Assembly (NCBI GenBank): GCA_017935165.1
Contig: JAGBID010000179.1
Location: 1-44,816, forward strand
From: Clostridia bacterium
Lineage (GTDB): Bacteria > Bacillota > Clostridia > Oscillospirales > Acutalibacteraceae
Direction of reading: 5' to 3'
Length of the DNA stretch: 44,816 nucleotides
The position numbers and the translations under genes were made by a program. The notes under the pieces were generated by a model. It searched no databases and was not told where the DNA came from. It worked only from the letters and a program-made list of their open reading frames with translations. Positions 5 through 8,763 of the stretch are shown piece after piece; positions within the stretch are counted from its first letter, which is position 1, and every line of letters starts with the position of its first letter.

Positions 5-2479
5 ATGAAAAAGCGTTTACTGTCACTTATACTTATATTTACCATATTATTTTCCGCTGTGCCCTTCACTTCTTTTGAGGCAGAAGCTGATACAGCCGAG
101 GCTCAGAACGTTTCCGAGGGTGTAGAAAACATTGTTAAAAGAGCAAGGCAGATGACTGAAATTGAGTGGACCCCAAAGAAAAATATCACGGGTTGGGGCT
201 ACGAATACACCTACGAGGCAGGCGTAACCTACAAGGGTCTGCCTTACGGTCAGCCTACAAATGCCAACGGCTGCCGCGGTGACTATGTACCCTGGGAAGC
301 TTCCCTTGATAAATTCTTAGCCGCCGTCAACGATGAAACAAGCCTTATTTATACTTCAAGCGCTAACTACAGCGAAATTGCACCTTACTATTCCGTTGAC
401 TGCAGCGGTTTCGTTTCCTGGGCGTGGGATTTACCCGTAAGAACAACTGCCAGCGGTATAAGAAGCTACGCAACCTTAATAAGCACAGATTCCTACGAGG
501 ATGCCGAAATAGGCGACTGCCTTTGTAATGCCTCCGCCCACGTTACCCTTATCACGGACGTTACAAGGGACTCAAACGGCAAGGTAACAAGCATTGAGAT
601 TTCAGAATCCAACGTAGGCTACGATAATAATTACTGCTGTTATTCCGTAAGATACGGTGAGGGCGGCGAATACACCCTTACCAAGTTTATGAATAAGTTT
701 ATAAACCGCGGCTACTACATTTACCGCAGTAACACAAGGGACCAGGCTGAGTACACCCACAGCTGTGCAGTACCTTTGGAAGGCGATAACTGTGACAAAT
801 GCGGTTACAGCAGTGCGGCTAATGCAAGAGATTTCATTGAAAGCACCTACCCCTCCTATGCTGAAATTGTAACCAAGGCGCCTGCAAAGGTTTACTCCTT
901 CCCCTGCACAAGCGAAGTAACAAGCGATTCCTTAAACATCCACACAACAACCGCAGGCGAAACTTTAACAGCCACGGCTTTATGCCTTAACACCAATGGC
1001 GAATACTGGTACAAGGTAAGCATAGACGGTGCAGTAGGCTATATATACGGTGGTGATACAGGCCTTAACAAGCTCCTTGACTCCGACATTACTGCCACAA
1101 ATATTGCCGAGCCCAAGGAAGTAACGGTAGGCAATCCCTTTAACCTTGGCGGTGTTTTGAAGGCTGTATATAATAAGCTTACCAAAATAGAAGTTCAGGT
1201 AACCTCCAACGGCACGGTTAACTTAAGCAGCAGCGCAAACGTTATAAATAACTCCTATAATTTAAAGAGCAGTTATATTGACAGCACCATAATTTTTAAC
1301 GATTTACTTGTAGGCAATTACGATTACGAGATTTACGTAACCGCTGAAAGGTACTACACCTCTGACGGTGCCAGCCTTAACAGCGACACAACAAAGTTCC
1401 TTATCCACGTAAACCCCTTCAAGGTTATAAGCGACATTGAGCACGATTGCGACAAGGGCAGCTTCAAATACGCAGGCGAGGCTCACCCCCATTACTCCTA
1501 CTATGAATGCTCACAGTGCGGCCTTATAAATGAATTTACCGACGAAACAAACCATATAAGCACCTGTACTCTTTGCAGACCCGAAAAACCCGTTTTAGCT
1601 GCCGAATATCAGGAGGATTGCAGCGGTGAAATAGACGTAAGCTTCAGCTGGGAAAAGGCTTCAAACGTTTCCTACTACGCCCTTACAATTTATGAAGAGC
1701 AGGCTAACGGCAACTATATGGAGACAGATTACGTAATAAATGCCGAAAGCGGTGTGGTTATACCCTTCACTTCAGGCAAATATAAGGTGATATTAACAGC
1801 TTACAACGAAAATTTTGAAGCAAGCGACGGCAACAGCCACGCATATACTGACAGCGACGAAATATATATCACAGTTTCCTCCGGCCACGAGTATGAGTCC
1901 TCCGTAAAGGCTCCTGACTGTATTTCCGAAGGCTATACACTTTACGTCTGCAAGCATTGTAAAGATGAATACAAGGAAGATATCATTCCTGCAACGGGTA
2001 TTCACACTTACAGCAACAATGCGGACGCAACCTGCAACGTGTGTGACTACGTAAGAGTGGCACCCGTCAAGTCAGTTCCCATGTACAGAATGTACGACAA
2101 AAACGGCGGCGAGCACTTCTACACAGGCAGCACCGAGGAACGCGACTTCCTTATTTCAGCAGGCTGGAGCTACGAGGGTGTAGGCTTTAACTTCCCTGCT
2201 GCAGGCAAGCCTGTCTACAGACTTTACGAGCCTATTACAGGCGAACACCTTTACACAATGGACTTAGAGGAGAAAGCAAAGCTTATTGAGGAAGGCTGGA
2301 ATGACGAGGGCGTTGCCTTCAACAGCGCTGACGAGGACGAAATTCCACAGTACCGCTTACATAACCCCAACGCATCAAGAGGTGCTTACCACTTTACAGG
2401 CAGCACCGAAGAGCGTGACATACTTATAGCCGCAGGCTGGGAATACCAGGGCATCGGCTTCTACAGCTGCAAGAGATAA
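5..2479 (+). CDS. Secreted multidomain cell-wall-associated protein. Contains a signal peptide, an NlpC/P60-like Cys-His peptidase domain, an SH3b-like segment, Cys-rich modules and three C-terminal DUF5648-like repeats.
   Basis: Hydrophobic N-terminus MKKRLLSLILIFTILFSAVPF. The DCSGFVSWAW motif plus downstream HVTLI resembles an NlpC/P60 catalytic Cys/His pair. GEYWYKVSIDGAVGYIYG looks SH3b-like. Several CxxC pairs are present. Three tandem ~40-aa units of the form YR.Y.P..GEH.YT...E...L...GW..EG..F span about 2081-2476. Confidence 0.6.
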   Translation: MKKRLLSLILIFTILFSAVPFTSFEAEADTAEAQNVSEGVENIVKRARQMTEIEWTPKKNITGWGYEYTYEAGVTYKGLPYGQPTNANGCRGDYVPWEASLDKFLAAVNDETSLIYTSSANYSEIAPYYSVDCSGFVSWAWDLPVRTTASGIRSYATLISTDSYEDAEIGDCLCNASAHVTLITDVTRDSNGKVTSIEISESNVGYDNNYCCYSVRYGEGGEYTLTKFMNKFINRGYYIYRSNTRDQAEYTHSCAVPLEGDNCDKCGYSSAANARDFIESTYPSYAEIVTKAPAKVYSFPCTSEVTSDSLNIHTTTAGETLTATALCLNTNGEYWYKVSIDGAVGYIYGGDTGLNKLLDSDITATNIAEPKEVTVGNPFNLGGVLKAVYNKLTKIEVQVTSNGTVNLSSSANVINNSYNLKSSYIDSTIIFNDLLVGNYDYEIYVTAERYYTSDGASLNSDTTKFLIHVNPFKVISDIEHDCDKGSFKYAGEAHPHYSYYECSQCGLINEFTDETNHISTCTLCRPEKPVLAAEYQEDCSGEIDVSFSWEKASNVSYYALTIYEEQANGNYMETDYVINAESGVVIPFTSGKYKVILTAYNENFEASDGNSHAYTDSDEIYITVSSGHEYESSVKAPDCISEGYTLYVCKHCKDEYKEDIIPATGIHTYSNNADATCNVCDYVRVAPVKSVPMYRMYDKNGGEHFYTGSTEERDFLISAGWSYEGVGFNFPAAGKPVYRLYEPITGEHLYTMDLEEKAKLIEEGWNDEGVAFNSADEDEIPQYRLHNPNASRGAYHFTGSTEERDILIAAGWEYQGIGFYSCKR

Positions 2480-2514: not shown

Positions 2515-3720
2515 TTATTTTTCCTCTTCAATTTTATAGTATTCGTGAACAAGGCTTCTGTACCCCAGCTTTTTTATATCCTCGTAGCGGAAGTCGTACA
2601 TTTTTTTGGTGTGCCTGCCTGTTGCTAAAAACCTTATATTATACTGGCAATATTCGTCTATTAATTTTAAGGATTCGTCGGTATTTATAATGGGGAAGTA
2701 CCACCTTGCCCAGGTAAGCTCCTTATCCTCTGTGTTTTCGTAAAGCTTTCTGTTGAAGGCTTTTACAAAGGCTTTGGCGGCTTTTTCGTTTGTTAGCTTC
2801 TTTCTTGCCTGCCAGCGCTTTAAGGCTCGCGCCTTCCTGCGCATTTTATCCTTCAGTTTTTTAACTGACACAGGCGAAACGTCCACCTTACCGTTATTAT
2901 AGCAAAAGCCTAAGTATACCCAGGGCTCCATAGGCTTCGTAAACTCCTCTTTTTTAGGGTTAACGCAAAGACCTTTGCTTATTAAATAGCTTTTAATTTC
3001 CTCGGATGCTTTTAAAATTTCAGCTTCATCTTCGGAAAAAACGATAATATCGTCGGAATACCTTGCATACAGAACGCCCTTTTTTTCAAAATACTTATCC
3101 ATATCCGCAAGGTATAAATTGGCAATAAAGGTTGAAACAGGTACGCCTGCCATTATGCCCTTTTTATTTTCCTCGTTTATAAGCTTCTCTCTGTCGTAAA
3201 CCAAGGTGTTATTTAAAAGAGAAATAATAAACTCAGCCGCCTCCCCGTCCTCTTTAAGTGTGCTTAAAAGCAGAGGCGTTATTTTGTCCACGGGTACGGA
3301 ATTGAAATAATCGCTTATATCCACCTTGTAGGAGTACATATTTCTTATATTTTTATAAGAAGTAAGCTTTTTCACAGCATCGCGGACAGATCTTTTCCTT
3401 CTGAAGGAGTAAAGGTTTTCGGGGAAAATATAGTCGTATTTTTCCTGCAAAAGGTAGGTTAAAAGCTTCAAAACGAAGTTTTCGCCCTCGGGAAAGGTGT
3501 AAACCACTCTTTTTTTCTCAGAACCCAGCTTGCTTATATACTTCTTTTTAGGTATGGGAAAATTTTCACCCGAAAGCATTTTGTTTACGATAGGGAGGTA
3601 CTCTTTATTTTCTATAAAAACCTTAAGGATTTTTTCGTCCCTTTTACTTAAGTGACCGCTGTTTATTTTATATTCCAAAAATTCCTGCCAAACATTTTCA
3701 AGCAAAAGCTGACTTAACAT
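2515..3720 (-). CDS. Stand-alone reverse transcriptase (RVT_1-type, 401 aa) with a group-II-like thumb region. It is not embedded in an intron and is a candidate retron-like or defence-associated RT.
   Basis: Catalytic YSDD is encoded at 3049-3060 (tat tcc gac gat on the minus strand). Motif A-like YKVDISDYFNSV, motif B-like GIMAGVPVSTFIANLYL and a LYSFRRKRSVRDAV motif are present. YLGF follows the palm domain. The C-terminal WARWYFP....LIDEY....IRFL segment resembles a maturase or thumb. A strong RBS gggagggg lies 5 nt upstream of the ATG. Confidence 0.85.
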   Translation of the reverse strand: MLSQLLLENVWQEFLEYKINSGHLSKRDEKILKVFIENKEYLPIVNKMLSGENFPIPKKKYISKLGSEKKRVVYTFPEGENFVLKLLTYLLQEKYDYIFPENLYSFRRKRSVRDAVKKLTSYKNIRNMYSYKVDISDYFNSVPVDKITPLLLSTLKEDGEAAEFIISLLNNTLVYDREKLINEENKKGIMAGVPVSTFIANLYLADMDKYFEKKGVLYARYSDDIIVFSEDEAEILKASEEIKSYLISKGLCVNPKKEEFTKPMEPWVYLGFCYNNGKVDVSPVSVKKLKDKMRRKARALKRWQARKKLTNEKAAKAFVKAFNRKLYENTEDKELTWARWYFPIINTDESLKLIDEYCQYNIRFLATGRHTKKMYDFRYEDIKKLGYRSLVHEYYKIEEEK

Positions 3721-3743
3721 ATAACCCCTCCCTTCTTAATATT

Positions 3744-3877
3744 AAAACAGAGAGAAAGTGCATTAAAGCATGCTTAACATTTCAGCATTCTACCGGGCCG
3801 TACACAGGCAGCTGCCTGCAAAGCTTATAAAGCCTGTGCTGTGCCCTTCGCAGGCGCAAAGCGTTTCTCTCTGTTTT
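3744..3877 (-). ncRNA. Candidate structured ncRNA (retron msr/msd-like) closed by a perfect 14-bp inverted repeat, lying directly upstream of the RT
   Basis: aaaacagagagaaa at 3744-3757 is the exact reverse complement of tttctctctgtttt at 3864-3877. The 106 nt between them has stop codons in all six frames and is G+C-richer. It contains four caggc/gcctg elements (3805-3809, 3814-3818, 3832-3836, 3851-3855), including the palindrome caggcagctgcctg. The element sits between the upstream stop (3899) and the RT start (3720). Strand is assumed to match the RT. Confidence 0.45.
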
Positions 3878-3898
3878 TAGCTATGTAATTTAGTTTTA

Positions 3899-4894
3899 TT
3901 ACTTAAGTGCTGCTTTTACTCTGCTTTTTACGTAGGTTTCGCTGTTACGGAAATTGGGAATAAACCTGATGGCGGGTATACCCTTTTCCTTTACAGCACT
4001 AAGAATATTACTTACCTTTCTTTCAGACAAATCACCGGTACCGAAAAGGAATATGGCAAGCTTTATTTCGCCATCCTTCCATAAAGCAAAGTCCGCTTTA
4101 ATATTTTCATCGGTTAAAATGCAGTCCTTATAAATATCATAATCACTGAAATTCTGTAAAAGTAAACCGGCAAAATAATCCTTTGGCTCGCCCCAATAGT
4201 GGTAAATATCCGCAGGGAAGTAACCATCAGTTACGCCTTTGCCAAAAAGCATATTGGCAGCTTTAAGGTCTCTTTTATTTGCATTAACCGTTATAGTCGC
4301 ATTCATACCCTTACAAACGCACTCACTAAAAGCACCAAGAATAGTGTTGTCATCCGTTCTGTCGATATAGGTAATTTTGCAGAAAGGCCCGAAAGCACTG
4401 CCGATAAACACGTTGCTGTCAAGCTGTGCATATCCATCAATAACTTTTCCCGTAAGAGTATTGCCCTTAATTTTGCTTACTGCGAATCTGAATGGTCCTG
4501 CAGGTACCTTTGAAACATCCGCCTCAGTAATAAGGGTACCGTTAATATTCGTTTCTTCATAAGGCTCCCAACTGCCGCTTACAATTTCGCCTTCATCGCT
4601 TTCAATTTCCCATTCACCCTCGTAGGTAATATCCTCTTCGGATGCTTCCCAGCTGCCGCTATAAATAACTTCCTCCTCTTTGTTTTCATCGGGAAGCTCT
4701 ATCTCGATTTCATCAACGGGGACATATTTTTCCTCTTTTTTCTCCTCAGCTTTATTTTCGCTTGTACCAATGCCTAATTTTTCACGGAGGTGTTCCATCG
4801 AATAGGTAAGTCCGCACTCAATGCAGGTAGCGCCCTTGCCGCCCTTGTTGATTTCCAAAGTACCGCCGCAGAGGTCGCAGGTAAGTTTTTTCAT
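3899..4894 (-). CDS. Hypothetical protein and candidate RT-associated effector. Domains in order: N-terminal zinc ribbon, acidic SGSWE-repeat linker, beta-barrel resembling translation-factor domain II, and a C-terminal DUF2726-like (PD-(D/E)xK-fold-like) domain.
   Basis: CDLCGG...CIECG forms the zinc ribbon at aa 6-27. The E/D-rich tract carries two SGSWE units at aa 45-115. aa 131-220, PFRFAVSKIKGNTLTGKVIDG...MLFGKG, follows the EF-Tu domain 2 spacing pattern. The tail ADFALWKDGEIKLAIFLFG....KGIPAIRF follows the DUF2726 pattern vDFvl...laIEldg...GiPvlRf, but with F where the acidic residue is expected. RBS aaggag lies 7 nt before the ATG. That it is coding is secure; the domain calls are from memory. 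Confidence 0.5.
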   Translation of the reverse strand: MKKLTCDLCGGTLEINKGGKGATCIECGLTYSMEHLREKLGIGTSENKAEEKKEEKYVPVDEIEIELPDENKEEEVIYSGSWEASEEDITYEGEWEIESDEGEIVSGSWEPYEETNINGTLITEADVSKVPAGPFRFAVSKIKGNTLTGKVIDGYAQLDSNVFIGSAFGPFCKITYIDRTDDNTILGAFSECVCKGMNATITVNANKRDLKAANMLFGKGVTDGYFPADIYHYWGEPKDYFAGLLLQNFSDYDIYKDCILTDENIKADFALWKDGEIKLAIFLFGTGDLSERKVSNILSAVKEKGIPAIRFIPNFRNSETYVKSRVKAALK

Positions 4895-4923
4895 AATTTT
4901 GCTCCTTAATTTATATTAAATTA

Positions 4924-5340
4924 TTATTTTTCCGTTTCGTACTGCCAGGTTAAAATCCCGCCGAATTCATAGATATTTTCGTAGCCAAGCTCTGCTAAAA
5001 TTTTGGAAGCCTCTTTACTTCTTCTGCCGCTTCTGCAGTAAACAAGAGTTTTTATATCCTTTTCCTTAATAACTTTAATTGCTTCTTCCTCAGCTTTATT
5101 GCTCTTTAAAACACTTAAAGGTAAAAGCACAGCGCCCTTTATATGGCTTTCGGCGTATTCTTCCGCTTCCCTTACGTCCACTATAAGCACATTTTCCGTG
5201 TCCATAATTTCCTTAGCCATATCCTGAGTGATTTCGGTATATCCGTAAATATTTTTCTCCATTTTAATTTCTCCTTCACTTTTCCCGCAGGAAACTAAAA
5301 GTAATATTATTAATAAAATAAAAATAATCAGCTTTTTCAT
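4924..5340 (-). CDS. Rhodanese-domain lipoprotein (sulfurtransferase-like)
   Basis: Lipoprotein signal with lipobox LLVSC. Single rhodanese domain with active-site loop CRSGRRS. Its start overlaps the upstream gene stop in an ATGA arrangement. Confidence 0.8.
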   Translation of the reverse strand: MKKLIIFILLIILLLVSCGKSEGEIKMEKNIYGYTEITQDMAKEIMDTENVLIVDVREAEEYAESHIKGAVLLPLSVLKSNKAEEEAIKVIKEKDIKTLVYCRSGRRSKEASKILAELGYENIYEFGGILTWQYETEK

Positions 5341-5687
5341 TTTCTTAAAATTTTCTCCATAGCCTTGCCTTTACTCAGTTCATCCACAAGCTTATCAAGG
5401 TAACGGATTTCAAGCATTAATGGGTCGTCAATACTTTCAAGTTTAACTCCACAGACCGAACCCTTTATAAGGCGGCGGTTTTCATTTAAAGAGGGTGCAT
5501 TCCTGAAAAAATCCCCGTAACTTATTTCACTTTCAAGGCATTTTGCTATATCTTCATAACTGTAGCCTGTAAGCCAGCAGCTTACTTCCAGCACTTCGTT
5601 TTTAGTTCTGCCCTTTCTTTCTGCTTTATTTATAAGCAGCAGGTAGACCTTTTTAAAGCTCATATCAAATATTTTATCATTTGCCAC
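5337..5687 (-). CDS. DUF2200-family protein
   Basis: 116 aa. KAERKGRTKNEV...WLTGY...FF.NAP...LIKGSVCGVKLE.IDDPLM..IRYLDKLVDEL.KGKAMEKIL matches my recollection of DUF2200. GTG start, with AGGAGG 7 nt upstream. Confidence 0.6.
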   Translation of the reverse strand: MANDKIFDMSFKKVYLLLINKAERKGRTKNEVLEVSCWLTGYSYEDIAKCLESEISYGDFFRNAPSLNENRRLIKGSVCGVKLESIDDPLMLEIRYLDKLVDELSKGKAMEKILRK

Positions 5688-5710
5688 AGCATCCCCTCCT
5701 TTTAAATATT

Positions 5711-5739
5711 ATTGTACCCCAAAGCTATAAATTTTGCAA
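5711..5739 (-). promoter_or_regulatory. Putative sigma-A promoter for the DUF2200 / rhodanese / Zn-ribbon gene / ncRNA / RT string
   Basis: On the minus strand: TTGCAA (5739-5734), a 17-nt spacer, then TACAAT (5716-5711). This lies about 25 nt upstream of the GTG start at 5687. Confidence 0.4.
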
Positions 5740-5745
5740 CAAGGC

Positions 5746-5774
5746 TTTACTTAGTTTGAAAATGTTTTTATAAT
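5746..5774 (+). promoter_or_regulatory. Putative sigma-A promoter for the glycerate kinase gene
   Basis: TTTACT (5746-5751), a 17-nt spacer, then TATAAT (5769-5774). This lies 32 nt upstream of the ATG at 5807. Confidence 0.35.
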
Positions 5775-5806
5775 AGAACTATAAAAATTTTGATTTTGGT
5801 GGTAAT

Positions 5807-6946
5807 ATGAAAGTTACTGTAGCTATTGATTCTTTTAAAGGCAGCCTCAGTTCCCTTGAGGCAGGAAGCGCTGTAAAGGAAGGCATACTTAAAGTATACG
5901 AAAATGCTGAGGTTAAGGTATTCCCATTAGCTGATGGCGGTGAAGGCACAAGTGAGGCTTTGACCCTCGGTATGGGCGGAGAGCTTATAAACACAGAGGT
6001 TCACGACCCACTTATGCGAAAGATTGATGCAGCTTACGGAATAATAAAAAATGAAAGGCTTGCCATAATGGAGATGGCATCTGCCTCCGGCATTACCCTT
6101 GTAAATGAAAGTGAACGCGATATTTTAAAAGCCACCACCTACGGCGTAGGCGAGATGATAAAGGACGCTATAAAAAAGGGTGCAAGAAACTTCATAATAG
6201 GCATAGGAGGCAGCGCCACCAACGATTGCGGCAGCGGTATGCTTATGGCTTTAGGCTTTGATATACTTGATAAAGAGGGTAATAAAATTCCCCTTGGTGC
6301 CATAGGTTTAAAGGACGCTTACAGAATTGAAAGCAAAAATGTAATTCCTGAGCTTAAGGACTGCAGCTTTAAAATTGCCTGCGACGTTAAAAACCCCTTA
6401 TGCGGCGAGCTTGGCTGCAGTAATATTTACGGACCTCAGAAAGGTGCCACAAAGGAAAATATTCCATTAATGGATTCCTACATCTCTCATTTTGCAGATG
6501 TAACAAAAGGATTTAACTCTGATGCCGACAAGGATTACCCGGGCACAGGTGCCGCAGGAGGCTTAGGCTTTGCTTTCAAATACTTTTTAAACGGCGAATT
6601 AAAAAAGGGTGCGGAGATAGTTACCGAAAGCATTAAAATCGAGGAGGATATAAAGGACAGCGACCTTGTTATAACGGGCGAAGGCAGGCTTGACAGCCAG
6701 ACCGTTATGGGTAAAGCGCCAAGTGCAGTTGCAAGCCTTGCAAAAAAACACGGAAAGTCCTGCATTGCTTTCTCAGGCTGTGTAAGTGAGGATGCCGCTC
6801 TCTGTAATGAAAAGGGAATTGACGCCTTTTTCCCCATACTTAGAAATGTGGTTACCCTTGATGAAGCTCTTGACGTAAATAATGCCTATGAGAACGCAAA
6901 AAACACAGCCGAGCAGGTTATGAGGCTTATTAAAATATTTAAATAA
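5807..6946 (+). CDS. glxK: Glycerate kinase
   Basis: MKVTVAIDSFKGSLSS N-terminus, PLADGGEGT, and GEGRLDSQT..GKAP near the C-terminus are hallmark glycerate kinase (GlxK/GarK) motifs. Length is 379 aa. RBS is ggtgg. Confidence 0.9.
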   Translation: MKVTVAIDSFKGSLSSLEAGSAVKEGILKVYENAEVKVFPLADGGEGTSEALTLGMGGELINTEVHDPLMRKIDAAYGIIKNERLAIMEMASASGITLVNESERDILKATTYGVGEMIKDAIKKGARNFIIGIGGSATNDCGSGMLMALGFDILDKEGNKIPLGAIGLKDAYRIESKNVIPELKDCSFKIACDVKNPLCGELGCSNIYGPQKGATKENIPLMDSYISHFADVTKGFNSDADKDYPGTGAAGGLGFAFKYFLNGELKKGAEIVTESIKIEEDIKDSDLVITGEGRLDSQTVMGKAPSAVASLAKKHGKSCIAFSGCVSEDAALCNEKGIDAFFPILRNVVTLDEALDVNNAYENAKNTAEQVMRLIKIFK

Positions 6947-6966
6947 AAGTCATTTTCATAAAAGAG

Positions 6967-6997
6967 AAACGGGAGAATTTAACTCCCGTTTTCTTTT
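6967..6997 (+). terminator. Rho-independent terminator after the glycerate kinase gene
   Basis: 9-bp stem aaacgggag / ctcccgttt (6967-6975 / 6983-6991) with loop aatttaa, followed by a T-rich tail. Confidence 0.7.
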
Positions 6998-7077
6998 AAC
7001 TGAGCAATTTTGTTATTGCTTTAAAATTCTTTTTATATTAAACTTTGATTAATAGAATGGAATTGAAGGTGCGGAAA

Positions 7078-8763
7078 ATGGATACAAGCTACACTAAAAA
7101 TACTCCTGCTGAAGAACTTGCAAATATATTTATGAAAACTATTGAAAAGGAAGCTATTATTGCCGAGATTTTCAATTTCTTTGAGTTTTCACCCATTGCC
7201 CGCTGTAACGAGGACCCCGGTAAAATTGATAACCCCATAAAGGACTTTATAGATTCAGATTACAGCGATATAAACACCCTTGTAAAAATTATCAATATTG
7301 TTAAAAAGGGCTCCGAAAATTCCGAAAAACAGGAAAAGGAGCTGGTGGAAAAGGTAAAACGCTTTACCGAAAACCACCTTACCGAAAACTTAGGCATTGA
7401 GGATATAGCGGAAAGCATTCACGTAAGCTACTACTACCTTTGTCACATTTTCAAACAGCAGACGGGGATGTCCATTAATACCTATAAAAATATGAAGCGC
7501 ATTGAAAAGGCTATAAAGAAGCTTTCCCTTTCCGATGCAAAAATAGCCGACATAGCCTCAAACTGCGGTTTTAACAACATAAGCTATTTTGCCGAGGTTT
7601 TCACAAGATTTACAGGTCTTTCCCCTACAGCCTTCAAGCAGAAAATTAAGGATATGAAAATCCACAGCTTCTATGAGCTTAACGATATGCTCCTTGCAAG
7701 CAAAATGGATTTTAAAAGCTTTTTAAGTGAGGATATTGAAAAGCTCAGCGATAAAGTATTTGACGTTTCCTCCGTAAACGACCCTGATGCTGAATTTAAA
7801 TTCCTCCACGAAACTGCAATAATTGAATTTAAAAACGTCCTATATGCCGCCTGGTACGAATGTCCCGAAAACGAGCTTATGGGTTACACACCTATTGTGG
7901 GCAAACGCTCCTACGACGGCGGTAAAACCTGGACGGAGAAAGAGATAATTGCCAAGCCTGAAGAAGGCAGCGACAATATTCTTTTTTGCCCGCCTGTTTA
8001 CGGAATTTGTGACGGCAAGCTATATATTTTACTTAACGAAATGGTGGCGCCCGACCACATCCACGCCCTCGATTTATACGTTCTTGATGAGGAAAGTGAC
8101 AAATTCAAATTCCTTTGGTCAAGACCTATTCCCTTCAAGCTCAATACAAACACAGTAAGTCTTTCAAACGGCAAGCTTATGCTGCCGGGAAGAATAGCCG
8201 AAATGGACTCCTTCCCCAATACTCCCGCAGTTTTAATTTCTGACGACGGCAAGATAGACAGCAATTGGCGACTTGTTAAAATAGCGGAAAACGGCGACTT
8301 AGTGGACGAAAGCAAGCTTATTCACCCTGAAATAACTGTTATTGAACACGGAAAAATACTTTATATGTTCTGCCGTAACGATATGCGCCACGTGCCTCTC
8401 CTTTATATTTCAAAGGATTTCGGCGAAAGCTGGAGCAAGGAAACAGCAATTGACATACCCTTTGTAAGCACAAAAATATACGCAGGCACCCTTAAGGACG
8501 GCAGAAATTATATTATCTGCAATACCGATAATCTTGACAGAAGCAAGCTTACAGTTTATTTCTCCGAGAAAAACAAAATGGTATTTAATAAGGAGCTTAC
8601 CTTATTTGACAGGGAAAGCGAGCGCCTGCCTTTTGTTACAGCCTGCCACTACCCTGCCGCAACCGAAAGCGGTAACAAGCTTTATATTATAGCTACCAAA
8701 AACTTCGAAACCTTTATAAAGCGCGGCGCCGTGCTTTTCACCGTAGACCTTGATAAAATTTAA
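7078..8763 (+). CDS. AraC-family HTH regulator fused to a C-terminal BNR/Asp-box sialidase-like beta-propeller domain
   Basis: HTH_AraC signature IEDIAESIHVSYYYLCHIFKQQTGMS...IADIASNCGFNNISYFAEVFTRFTGLSPTAFK. Asp-boxes SYDGGKTW (about 7908-7934) and SKDFGESW (about 8410-8436). No signal peptide. I prefer the ATG at 7078 (RBS gaaggtg) over the TTG at 7045 in the ORF track. Confidence 0.7.
   Translation: MDTSYTKNTPAEELANIFMKTIEKEAIIAEIFNFFEFSPIARCNEDPGKIDNPIKDFIDSDYSDINTLVKIINIVKKGSENSEKQEKELVEKVKRFTENHLTENLGIEDIAESIHVSYYYLCHIFKQQTGMSINTYKNMKRIEKAIKKLSLSDAKIADIASNCGFNNISYFAEVFTRFTGLSPTAFKQKIKDMKIHSFYELNDMLLASKMDFKSFLSEDIEKLSDKVFDVSSVNDPDAEFKFLHETAIIEFKNVLYAAWYECPENELMGYTPIVGKRSYDGGKTWTEKEIIAKPEEGSDNILFCPPVYGICDGKLYILLNEMVAPDHIHALDLYVLDEESDKFKFLWSRPIPFKLNTNTVSLSNGKLMLPGRIAEMDSFPNTPAVLISDDGKIDSNWRLVKIAENGDLVDESKLIHPEITVIEHGKILYMFCRNDMRHVPLLYISKDFGESWSKETAIDIPFVSTKIYAGTLKDGRNYIICNTDNLDRSKLTVYFSEKNKMVFNKELTLFDRESERLPFVTACHYPAATESGNKLYIIATKNFETFIKRGAVLFTVDLDKI

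Follow-up and report, generated by a model that had tools for sequence, protein, structure and literature searches.

An RT-5 family RNA beside a UG26 reverse transcriptase in Clostridia: the probable RNA subunit of a three-part system

The chemistry of Class 2 UG reverse transcriptases (RTs) has repeatedly come as a surprise: DRT2 writes a gene, poly-dA is the product of DRT9, DRT10 works in a telomerase-like manner, and UG27 produces hairpin cDNAs, and each time the neighbouring non-coding RNA (ncRNA) was the key. In the structurally characterised Class 2 systems (DRT2, DRT3, DRT9, and DRT10), a short single-stranded template is framed by two stem-loops that anchor the RT (10.64898/2026.06.29.735271). 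The template of DRT9 (UG28) is a poly-U tract that yields poly-dA (PMC12483538), and the 137-nt ncRNA of DRT10 runs in the order stem-loop 5 (SL5), template loop, terminal stem SL1 (10.64898/2026.06.29.735271; 10.1101/2025.10.16.682844). Both DRT9 and DRT10 prime synthesis on a C-terminal tyrosine or serine (PMC12483538; 10.64898/2026.06.29.735271). UG26 is listed under Class 2 and is sometimes linked to a COG2852 protein (Mestre et al., 2022; PMC9226505); in the literature we searched on UG26, RF03026, and DRT11-13 (DRT11 being UG5), we found no functional study of UG26 and no RNA assigned to it. RT-5 is one of the motifs RT-1 to RT-19 that adjoin RT genes, many of which were speculated to take part in retrons (Weinberg et al., 2017; PMC5737381). 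Here we analyzed a 44.8-kb stretch of DNA from a Clostridia bacterium (contig JAGBID010000179.1 of assembly GCA_017935165.1, positions 1 to 44,816; hereafter the window), in which a preliminary description had noticed an inverted-repeat element close to an RT gene and had proposed a retron-like template RNA that switches between alternative folds.

We found that this element is almost certainly a member of the RT-5 family and the partner of a UG26 RT. The gene order on the minus strand is accessory gene, ncRNA, RT, and the parts of the locus are as follows.

3899-4894, minus strand: accessory gene encoding 331 amino acids, upstream of the ncRNA
3743-3878, minus strand: inverted-repeat RNA element, an RT-5 core with a closing stem, folded as a three-way junction (P1, P2, and P3) with a pseudoknot
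3725-3732, minus strand: Shine-Dalgarno-like GGGAGGGG, 5-12 nt 5' of the RT start codon, as read from the sequence
2515-3720, minus strand: UG26 RT of 401 amino acids, downstream of the ncRNA

An Rfam scan of the whole window gave one match, RF03026 "RT-5 RNA", at 3755-3859 on the minus strand (71.1 bits, gathering score 45.7, E = 4.6e-12, model positions 1-104 of 104). The Rfam model ends inside P1 and annotates the strands of the pseudoknot as unpaired; our own covariance model R1, which was built on an alignment (A2) of 52 upstream regions with the closing stem included, matched 3743-3878 on the minus strand at 98.3 bits. The RT in turn was matched by the PADLOC model RT_UG26 at 549.7 bits (E = 7.8e-166), followed by UG27 (112.9 bits), UG17/DRT10 (104.8 bits), and Drt9 (91.2 bits), while the retron RT models that PADLOC listed (RT_I-B, RT_II-A, and RT_VI) scored about 55-61 bits. 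The protein also has a Pfam RVT_1 match and an intact YSDD active site, and no NCBIfam retron, group II intron, or Drt2-5 model reached its cut-off for it (retron_St85_RT, for example, scored 65.7 bits against a cut-off of 235). On these profile scores, the enzyme is classed in the Class 2 UG/Abi group and not among the retron RTs, and membership of a retron therefore fails on the enzyme itself. We consider it very likely that the RNA is a functional subunit of the RT, and we propose that it is probably the cis-encoded ncRNA subunit (RT-5) of a three-part UG26 system.

The link between RNA and enzyme was followed in 80 genome loci, all from metagenome-assembled genomes of gut or rumen Clostridia, and 80 metagenome loci, which encode RTs 47-60% identical to that of the window; two close relatives (RT identities of 97% and 80%) were added. 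Across these 160 loci (1.3 Mb), R1 gave 152 matches (77 + 75), exactly one per locus, every one of them upstream of the RT and on its strand, and the Rfam RT-5 model hit the same position in all 11 homologous loci sampled. A cis-encoded, structured, and covarying ncRNA is thus conserved with the RT, as is seen for Class 2 UG RTs and their ncRNAs. The 3' end of the RNA lies a median of 32 nt from the RT start (at most 150 nt in 138 of 151 loci), and in the window it is separated from the ATG, on the same strand, by 23 nt. The exceptions are four loci in which the RNA is 1.4-5.4 kb away from the RT (L066, L076, L160, and L063) and one in which it is 0.6 kb away (L026). In L066, for instance, the RNA lies 1.36 kb from the RT and stays beside the accessory gene despite the inserted genes; the insert (4642-5994) holds two open reading frames (ORFs) of about 150 amino acids and a membrane ORF of 122 amino acids. 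In L063, an ORF of 794 amino acids abuts the RT start. Where genes have been inserted, the RNA keeps to the accessory gene instead of the RT, which argues against its being a mere leader of the RT gene. RT-5 was not detected anywhere in locus L036 (RT at 6001-7194), including 6 kb of upstream sequence, and the RNA may have been lost there or may have diverged too far to be detected. Among 2.9 million viral contigs we found only two relatives of the RT, both distant (L163 and L164 in IMG/VR, 34-38% identity), which indicates that UG26 is cellular; neither viral contig had an RT-5 match, and their RTs may be members of a separate UG group that has another RNA.

The preliminary description was right to see a discrete, structured, non-coding RNA element tied to the RT gene: it is conserved, it covaries, and it lies next to the RT. 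The segments of the RNA, all on the minus strand and given in 5' to 3' order of the transcript, are listed here.

3864-3877, minus strand: 5' arm of P1, RNA AAAACAGAGAGAAA, purine-rich, followed by a conserved CGC; perfect complement of 3744-3757
3849-3855, minus strand: 5' strand of the pseudoknot, GCCUGCG, in the linker between P1 and P2, containing the caggc at 3851; pairs with 3814-3820
3795-3846, minus strand: P2, a long hairpin with an asymmetric internal loop, from the Rfam consensus structure
within 3795-3846, minus strand: P2a (GGGC/GCCC), P2b (GCACAGGC/GCCUGUGU), and P2c (AGCU/AGCU)
3814-3820, minus strand: 3' strand of the pseudoknot, UGCAGGC, in the apical loop of P2, containing the gcctg at 3814; duplex of about -11.7 kcal/mol
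3770-3788, minus strand: P3, a hairpin AUGCU ... AGCAU, variable in sequence and supported by covariation
3758-3769, minus strand: J3/1, the linker GCUUUAAUGCAC from P3 to the 3' arm of P1 and candidate template loop, with UUUAA at 3763-3767
3744-3757, minus strand: 3' arm of P1, RNA UUUCUCUCUGUUUU, pyrimidine-rich with a U run at its end, supported by sequence and covariation

The closing stem is the perfect 14-bp repeat that had been reported, with aaaacagagagaaa at 3744-3757 fully complementary to tttctctctgtttt at 3864-3877 across a spacer of 106 nt, and in the RNA sense CGC directly follows the 5' arm. In a scan of the whole window for inverted repeats with arms of at least 13 nt within 250 nt of each other, it was the sole perfect repeat of at least 14 nt with widely spaced arms, and the arm word occurs in the window only at these two sites (0.16 matches expected by chance). 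Folding of the minus strand, as had been suggested, gave a minimum-free-energy structure of 3721-3898 that includes the closing stem (-53.6 kcal/mol). Compared with shuffled sequences this fold is, alone, only mildly unusual (z = -2.08); the weight of the evidence lies in the conservation and covariation seen at 150 other loci. Of the P1 alignment cells in two independent locus sets, 94.4% and 93.6% are paired, with double-sided changes at 16 of 16 and 15 of 16 modelled pairs, so that the helix proposed from a single sequence is borne out by its homologues. The stem is 12-21 bp long across loci, and its arms vary widely in sequence (for example ACAGAAAGAGAA/UUCUCUUUCUGU, CAGUGGGAAA/UUUCCCACUG, GGGCGCGGGAA/UUCCCGCGUCC, and CAUUAUUGUUUUCAAA/UUUGAAACAAUAAUG). 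For P2, 91-96% of the cells are paired and most pairs show double changes; for P3, the figures are about 95% and all 7 modelled pairs. The covariation observed for P1, P2, P3, and the pseudoknot was reached in 0 of 500 shuffles, and sliding the structures by 1-3 columns lowered the paired share to 30-51%. A run of at least five U is found at or just past the 3' end of the RNA in 101 of 131 homologues and may mark the RNA 3' end or act as a terminator. Additional hairpins, 19-64 nt long, occur at two permissive sites, the internal loop of P2 (L029, L050, L070, L078, and L111) and the loop of P3 (L012, L032, L084, L089, L090, and L150); the insertion in L029 is a duplicate of the GCAGGCAGC loop motif.

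The pseudoknot bears directly on the proposed conformational switch. The four words on which that proposal was built had been placed correctly (caggc at 3805-3809 and 3851-3855, gcctg at 3814-3818 and 3832-3836), and the 14-nt palindrome caggcagctgcctg is present at 3805-3818; the 10-nt palindrome aagcatgctt is also real, although it lies at 3766-3775, one base off the position given (3767-3776). Contrary to the proposal, the pairings are not mutually exclusive: the pseudoknot (gcctgc at 3814-3819 with gcaggc at 3850-3855) coexists with P2b (cacaggc at 3803-3809 with gcctgtg at 3832-3838). It comprises 6-7 bp, with (C/U)GCAGGC as the apical loop of the family. Its cells are paired at 100% in the MAFFT alignment A2 and at 99.6% and 98.9% in the model alignments, the covariance model having left these pairs unmodelled, and double changes (G-C to A-U, C-G to U-A, and U-A to C-G) occur at 3-5 of the 7 pairs. 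The switch itself found no support in the family, since the fold with two local hairpins is confined to the lineage of the window (3 of 132 distinct RNAs) and is energetically worse. In the window, the alternative reaches -46.5 kcal/mol at best, about 6 kcal/mol worse than the nested minimum of -52.6 kcal/mol; the consensus fold has -47.2 kcal/mol, or about -59 kcal/mol when the pseudoknot duplex is included. Both words occur at least twice in only 4 of the 132 distinct RNAs, and the resemblance between the strands of P2b and of the pseudoknot is peculiar to the lineage of the window. A small CGC/GCG hairpin proposed by RNAalifold was rejected, as it has no double changes and competes with the covarying pseudoknot. 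In addition, a mutual-information scan linked the bulged base between P2a and P2b (3841, column 40) to the first base of the apical loop (3820, column 62). These columns read G-C in 96 RNAs and A-U in 30, with 2 exceptions, two states only that are in part linked to lineage; they may form a tertiary pair that folds the tip of P2 back onto its base.

The third part of the proposed system is the accessory protein. An ORF with a COG2852-type domain immediately precedes the RNA in 122 of 146 loci, with a median gap of 19 nt, a much larger share than the 9 of 35 given by Mestre et al. (2022; PMC9226505). In the window, the C-terminal ~105 residues match the PADLOC model RTasCOG2852 (E = 1.7e-7, residues 229-330), a COG2852/DUF559-like RT-associated protein (Mestre cluster 1531). 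The corresponding domain can be delimited on the DNA.

3902-4219, minus strand: restriction-endonuclease-fold domain of the accessory protein (residues ~226-331), from AlphaFold2 and Foldseek

The AlphaFold2 model of this domain has a predicted local distance difference test score (pLDDT) of 89.7, and Foldseek matched it to I-Bth0305I (TM score 0.66-0.70), BstEII, Bax1, and R2 RLE; the domain as modelled has a restriction-endonuclease-like fold. The PD-(D/E)XK catalytic residues are not conserved across 49 sequences, in which only N96 and R104 are invariant and no acidic or lysine column is conserved, and nuclease activity is therefore doubtful. The E of the VVEL consensus is F in the window protein. 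Its N-terminal part (residues 1-225) consists of a CxxC...CxxC zinc ribbon, an acidic low-complexity linker, and a beta-barrel resembling domain II of EF-Tu (Foldseek 1g7c_A, E = 1.2e-5), while most homologues have 165-200 amino acids and begin with a conserved MSLLSKLL peptide and a linker. The N-terminal module thus appears to be swappable on a constant C-terminal domain. The protein had no Pfam or NCBIfam match and no sequence match in the PDB, and a word search gave only 4 homologues. The full-length AlphaFold2 model was set aside as poor (pLDDT 60.8), with Foldseek matches only through the beta-barrel.

By analogy with DRT2, DRT3, DRT9, DRT10, and UG27, the RNA most likely serves the RT as both scaffold and template. 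For the template role taken separately, we judge the case to be better than even. Accordingly worded, the earlier idea of a retron-like template RNA divides into an RT-partner RNA, which stands, a template function, which is probable, and membership of the retron family, which falls. In the arrangement that we envisage, the RNA would bind the RT as a scaffold and carry an internal template, consisting of a short linker with P3 as its 5' boundary and P1 as its 3' boundary; synthesis would be primed on one invariant C-terminal tyrosine of the RT, and the product, short-repeat or A/T-rich DNA, would then be sensed or acted on by the accessory protein. Candidate priming residues are Y394-Y395, which are invariant in 32 RT sequences and lie six residues from the C-terminus. 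Among the segments of the RNA, we tentatively single out J3/1 as the best template candidate, given that it lies between two helices, as do the templates of Class 2 RT ncRNAs, and that the RT has the invariant YY. A linker length of 9 nt is shared by 125 of 134 RNAs, and each position of UUUAA is conserved in 120-125 of 125, followed by four variable nucleotides (N4). Moreover, the topology P3-J3/1-P1 equals SL5-loop-SL1 of DRT10, an architecture that would fit J3/1 as the template. More speculatively, and considerably less likely than not to hold in full, UG26 with RT-5 could represent a further mode of Class 2 reverse transcription, in which the UUUAA-N4 loop is copied repeatedly from a C-terminal tyrosine into A/T-rich repeat DNA. 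The units in the window would be complementary to UUUAAUGCAC, and the family consensus would give units of ~8 nt such as TCATTAAA; slippage on UUU would instead yield poly-dA. The product DNA would be read by a catalytically degenerate nuclease-fold protein with swappable N-terminal modules.

Several observations weigh against the proposed three-part system, most of them against its template part. The 9 nt of J3/1 compare with ~19 nt for the template loop of DRT10 and leave little room for linkers and an A-B-A' arrangement. Such arrangements can be read across UUUAA (GCUUU-AAC-GCUUU and GGAUUU-AA-GGAUUU, and AUGC-UUUA-AUGC in the window), with most of the repeat made up of the conserved U runs and a weak signal in the variable bases (z = 3.5-4.0 versus permutation). 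A rival mini-hairpin (P4) that closes UUUAA fares about as well (z = 2.6-3.4). No column of J3/1 covaries with any other at a fixed register in the mutual-information scan, in which neither the A-B-A' repeat nor P4 appears. UG27, the closest group by hidden Markov model (HMM) score, copies a central hairpin into short cDNAs and makes no repeats. Finally, the prediction of a defence role for UG26 was inconclusive and no ncRNA was described for it (Mestre et al., 2022; PMC9226505), and the neighbours of the locus in the window are housekeeping genes rather than a defence island; this copy of UG26 is not in an obvious defence island.

The same closeness to UG27 suggests an alternative, in which the RT copies one hairpin (P2 or P3) once, between a fixed start and stop, into a discrete single-stranded cDNA hairpin of ~40-60 nt instead of repeats. 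UG27 is the next-best PADLOC model for the RT, as given above, its ncRNA units have 135-167 nt with a basal hairpin and a pseudoknot, its 50-100-nt cDNAs come from a central hairpin, and both of its accessory proteins are required (10.64898/2026.09.22.753630). P2b and P3, which are variable in sequence yet strictly paired and tolerant of insertions, would fit a product whose shape matters more than its sequence. However, the start and stop motifs AUCN7UANAG and UUYA were not found at comparable sites (searched by eye only), RT-5 is present as a single copy per locus and not as an array, the apical loop of P2 is locked in the conserved pseudoknot, and UG26 is cellular whereas UG27 is carried by phages. 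We regard copying of a single hairpin as unlikely, but as the strongest of the alternatives.

Copying could also be absent altogether if P1 and its U run acted as a terminator or attenuator of RT expression, making the RNA a cis-regulatory leader with no role as subunit or template. The frequent U run after the 3' arm and the short median distance to the RT start agree with such a leader. The loci in which the RNA lies 0.6-5.4 kb from the RT, with three ORFs in between in L066, do not, and a three-way junction, a near-invariant pseudoknot, and an invariant 5-nt motif exceed what a terminator needs; in addition, for each Class 2 UG RT studied so far the ncRNA next to it is required as a template. 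A purely regulatory role is thus improbable. A promoter scan directly upstream of the RNA gave nothing convincing. The median distance from the accessory stop codon to P1 is 19 nt, so co-transcription of the RNA followed by processing or termination is probable.

Still less probable is the retron reading of the preliminary description, in which P1 would be the a1/a2 repeat, the G 3' of the 5' arm would branch, and its 2'-OH would prime the msd to give 2'-5' branched multicopy single-stranded DNA (msDNA). It is true that a structured RNA with closing inverted repeats immediately precedes an RT gene, that the G 2 nt 3' of the stem is conserved (AACGC, at least 90%), and that Weinberg et al. (2017; PMC5737381) had speculated on such a role for the RT-1 to RT-19 motifs. 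The a1/a2-like stem is present and covaries; it is shared with the terminal stem of DRT10, however, and is not diagnostic. The enzyme is UG26 (549.7 bits, against about 55-61 bits with the retron RT models listed by PADLOC), and the RT family, as assigned from its sequence, gives no support for that G as a 2'-5' branch point. VTG and NAxxH are motifs of retron RTs, and neither was found on reading the RT protein sequence. The template is internal in all Class 2 UG enzymes characterised so far, with DRT9 and DRT10 priming on protein, and 134 nt with a pseudoknot and a three-way junction is not the layout of an msr-msd.

Rolling-circle copying of the ~105-nt insert enclosed by P1 into a concatemer with a never-ending ORF, as in DRT2, is extremely unlikely. 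P1 does join the ends of the insert in the way the DRT2 template stem does, and in many loci AAYG immediately follows the 5' arm and again immediately precedes the 3' arm. The endless (Neo) ORF was nevertheless rejected: the window unit has stops in all six frames, as the preliminary description had noted for the enclosed sequence, and this holds for a concatemer or circle, for any unit boundary within ±6 nt, and on both strands; moreover, frames anchored on conserved columns are open in at most 30 of 52 loci, and the insert, at 99-112 nt (longer with insertions), is not fixed modulo 3. That the element is a dispersed repeat of the repetitive extragenic palindromic (REP) or miniature inverted-repeat transposable element (MITE) type, near the RT by chance, is practically refuted in the available sequence, as only the terminal inverted repeat speaks for it, while the many RT-independent copies that had been named as a test were not seen: there is one copy per locus, on a fixed strand and side of the RT, in 1.3 Mb from 160 loci, and an R1 search found no second copy in the window.

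With RT-5 assigned to UG26, a formerly orphan RNA becomes part of a defined three-part construct of ~2.4 kb that is directly testable. In the surroundings of the window locus, a rhodanese gene and a DUF2200 gene (4924-5687, minus strand) lie directly upstream of the accessory gene, and the same neighbours are present in L161, the relative whose RT is 97% identical; the ~2.4-kb RT module thus sits in a conserved housekeeping context in this lineage. On the other side, a gene for a secreted-looking protein of 824 amino acids (5-2479, plus strand), with a C-terminal DUF5648 and cysteine-rich repeats, converges on the RT gene and seems unrelated to the RT system.

Compared with known systems, the locus resembles a retron msr-msd in that its RNA adjoins an RT gene, has inverted repeats as closing arms, and carries a conserved G close to the 5' arm, and differs from it in its RT family and in its three-way junction and pseudoknot. 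UG27 is the nearest RT group by HMM score and shares units of similar size, a basal hairpin, a pseudoknot, and accessory proteins, which UG27 requires; its RNAs are arrayed, carried by phages, and diverse in sequence, whereas RT-5 is single-copy, cellular, and conserved in sequence. As in DRT9 (UG28), a loop towards the 3' side of the RNA holds a universally conserved U tract (U4 in DRT9, U3-4 here), the 3' end has another U run that looks dispensable, and the C-terminal tail of the RT carries two conserved tyrosines; here, in contrast, the U tract is always followed by AA and abuts P3, and the Drt9 model gives only 91.2 bits. The likeness to DRT10 (UG17) covers the Class 2 UG RT (104.8 bits with the UG17 model), a cis-encoded ncRNA of ~137 nt, an end-to-end terminal stem, a hairpin directly 5' of a loop that runs into this stem, and C-terminal hydroxyl residues. 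The two differ in the loop (9 nt here with its first 5 nt invariant, ~19 nt and poorly conserved in DRT10), in the accessory protein (nuclease-fold here, SLATT in DRT10), and in RT-5 itself, which has a pseudoknot and no obvious pseudo-symmetry. With RT-5 (RF03026) itself, the window RNA shares the P2 and P3 helices, the position next to an RT, and the conserved strings UUGCGCCUGCG, UUGCAGGC, GUAC, and UUUAA, and we found no difference in the element. For the element taken alone the result is thus modest, one more member of a catalogued RNA family and not a retron. To that family our analysis adds the closing stem, the pseudoknot, and the links to UG26 and to the nuclease-fold accessory protein, none of which we found in the literature searched, together with a candidate template loop and candidate priming tyrosines.

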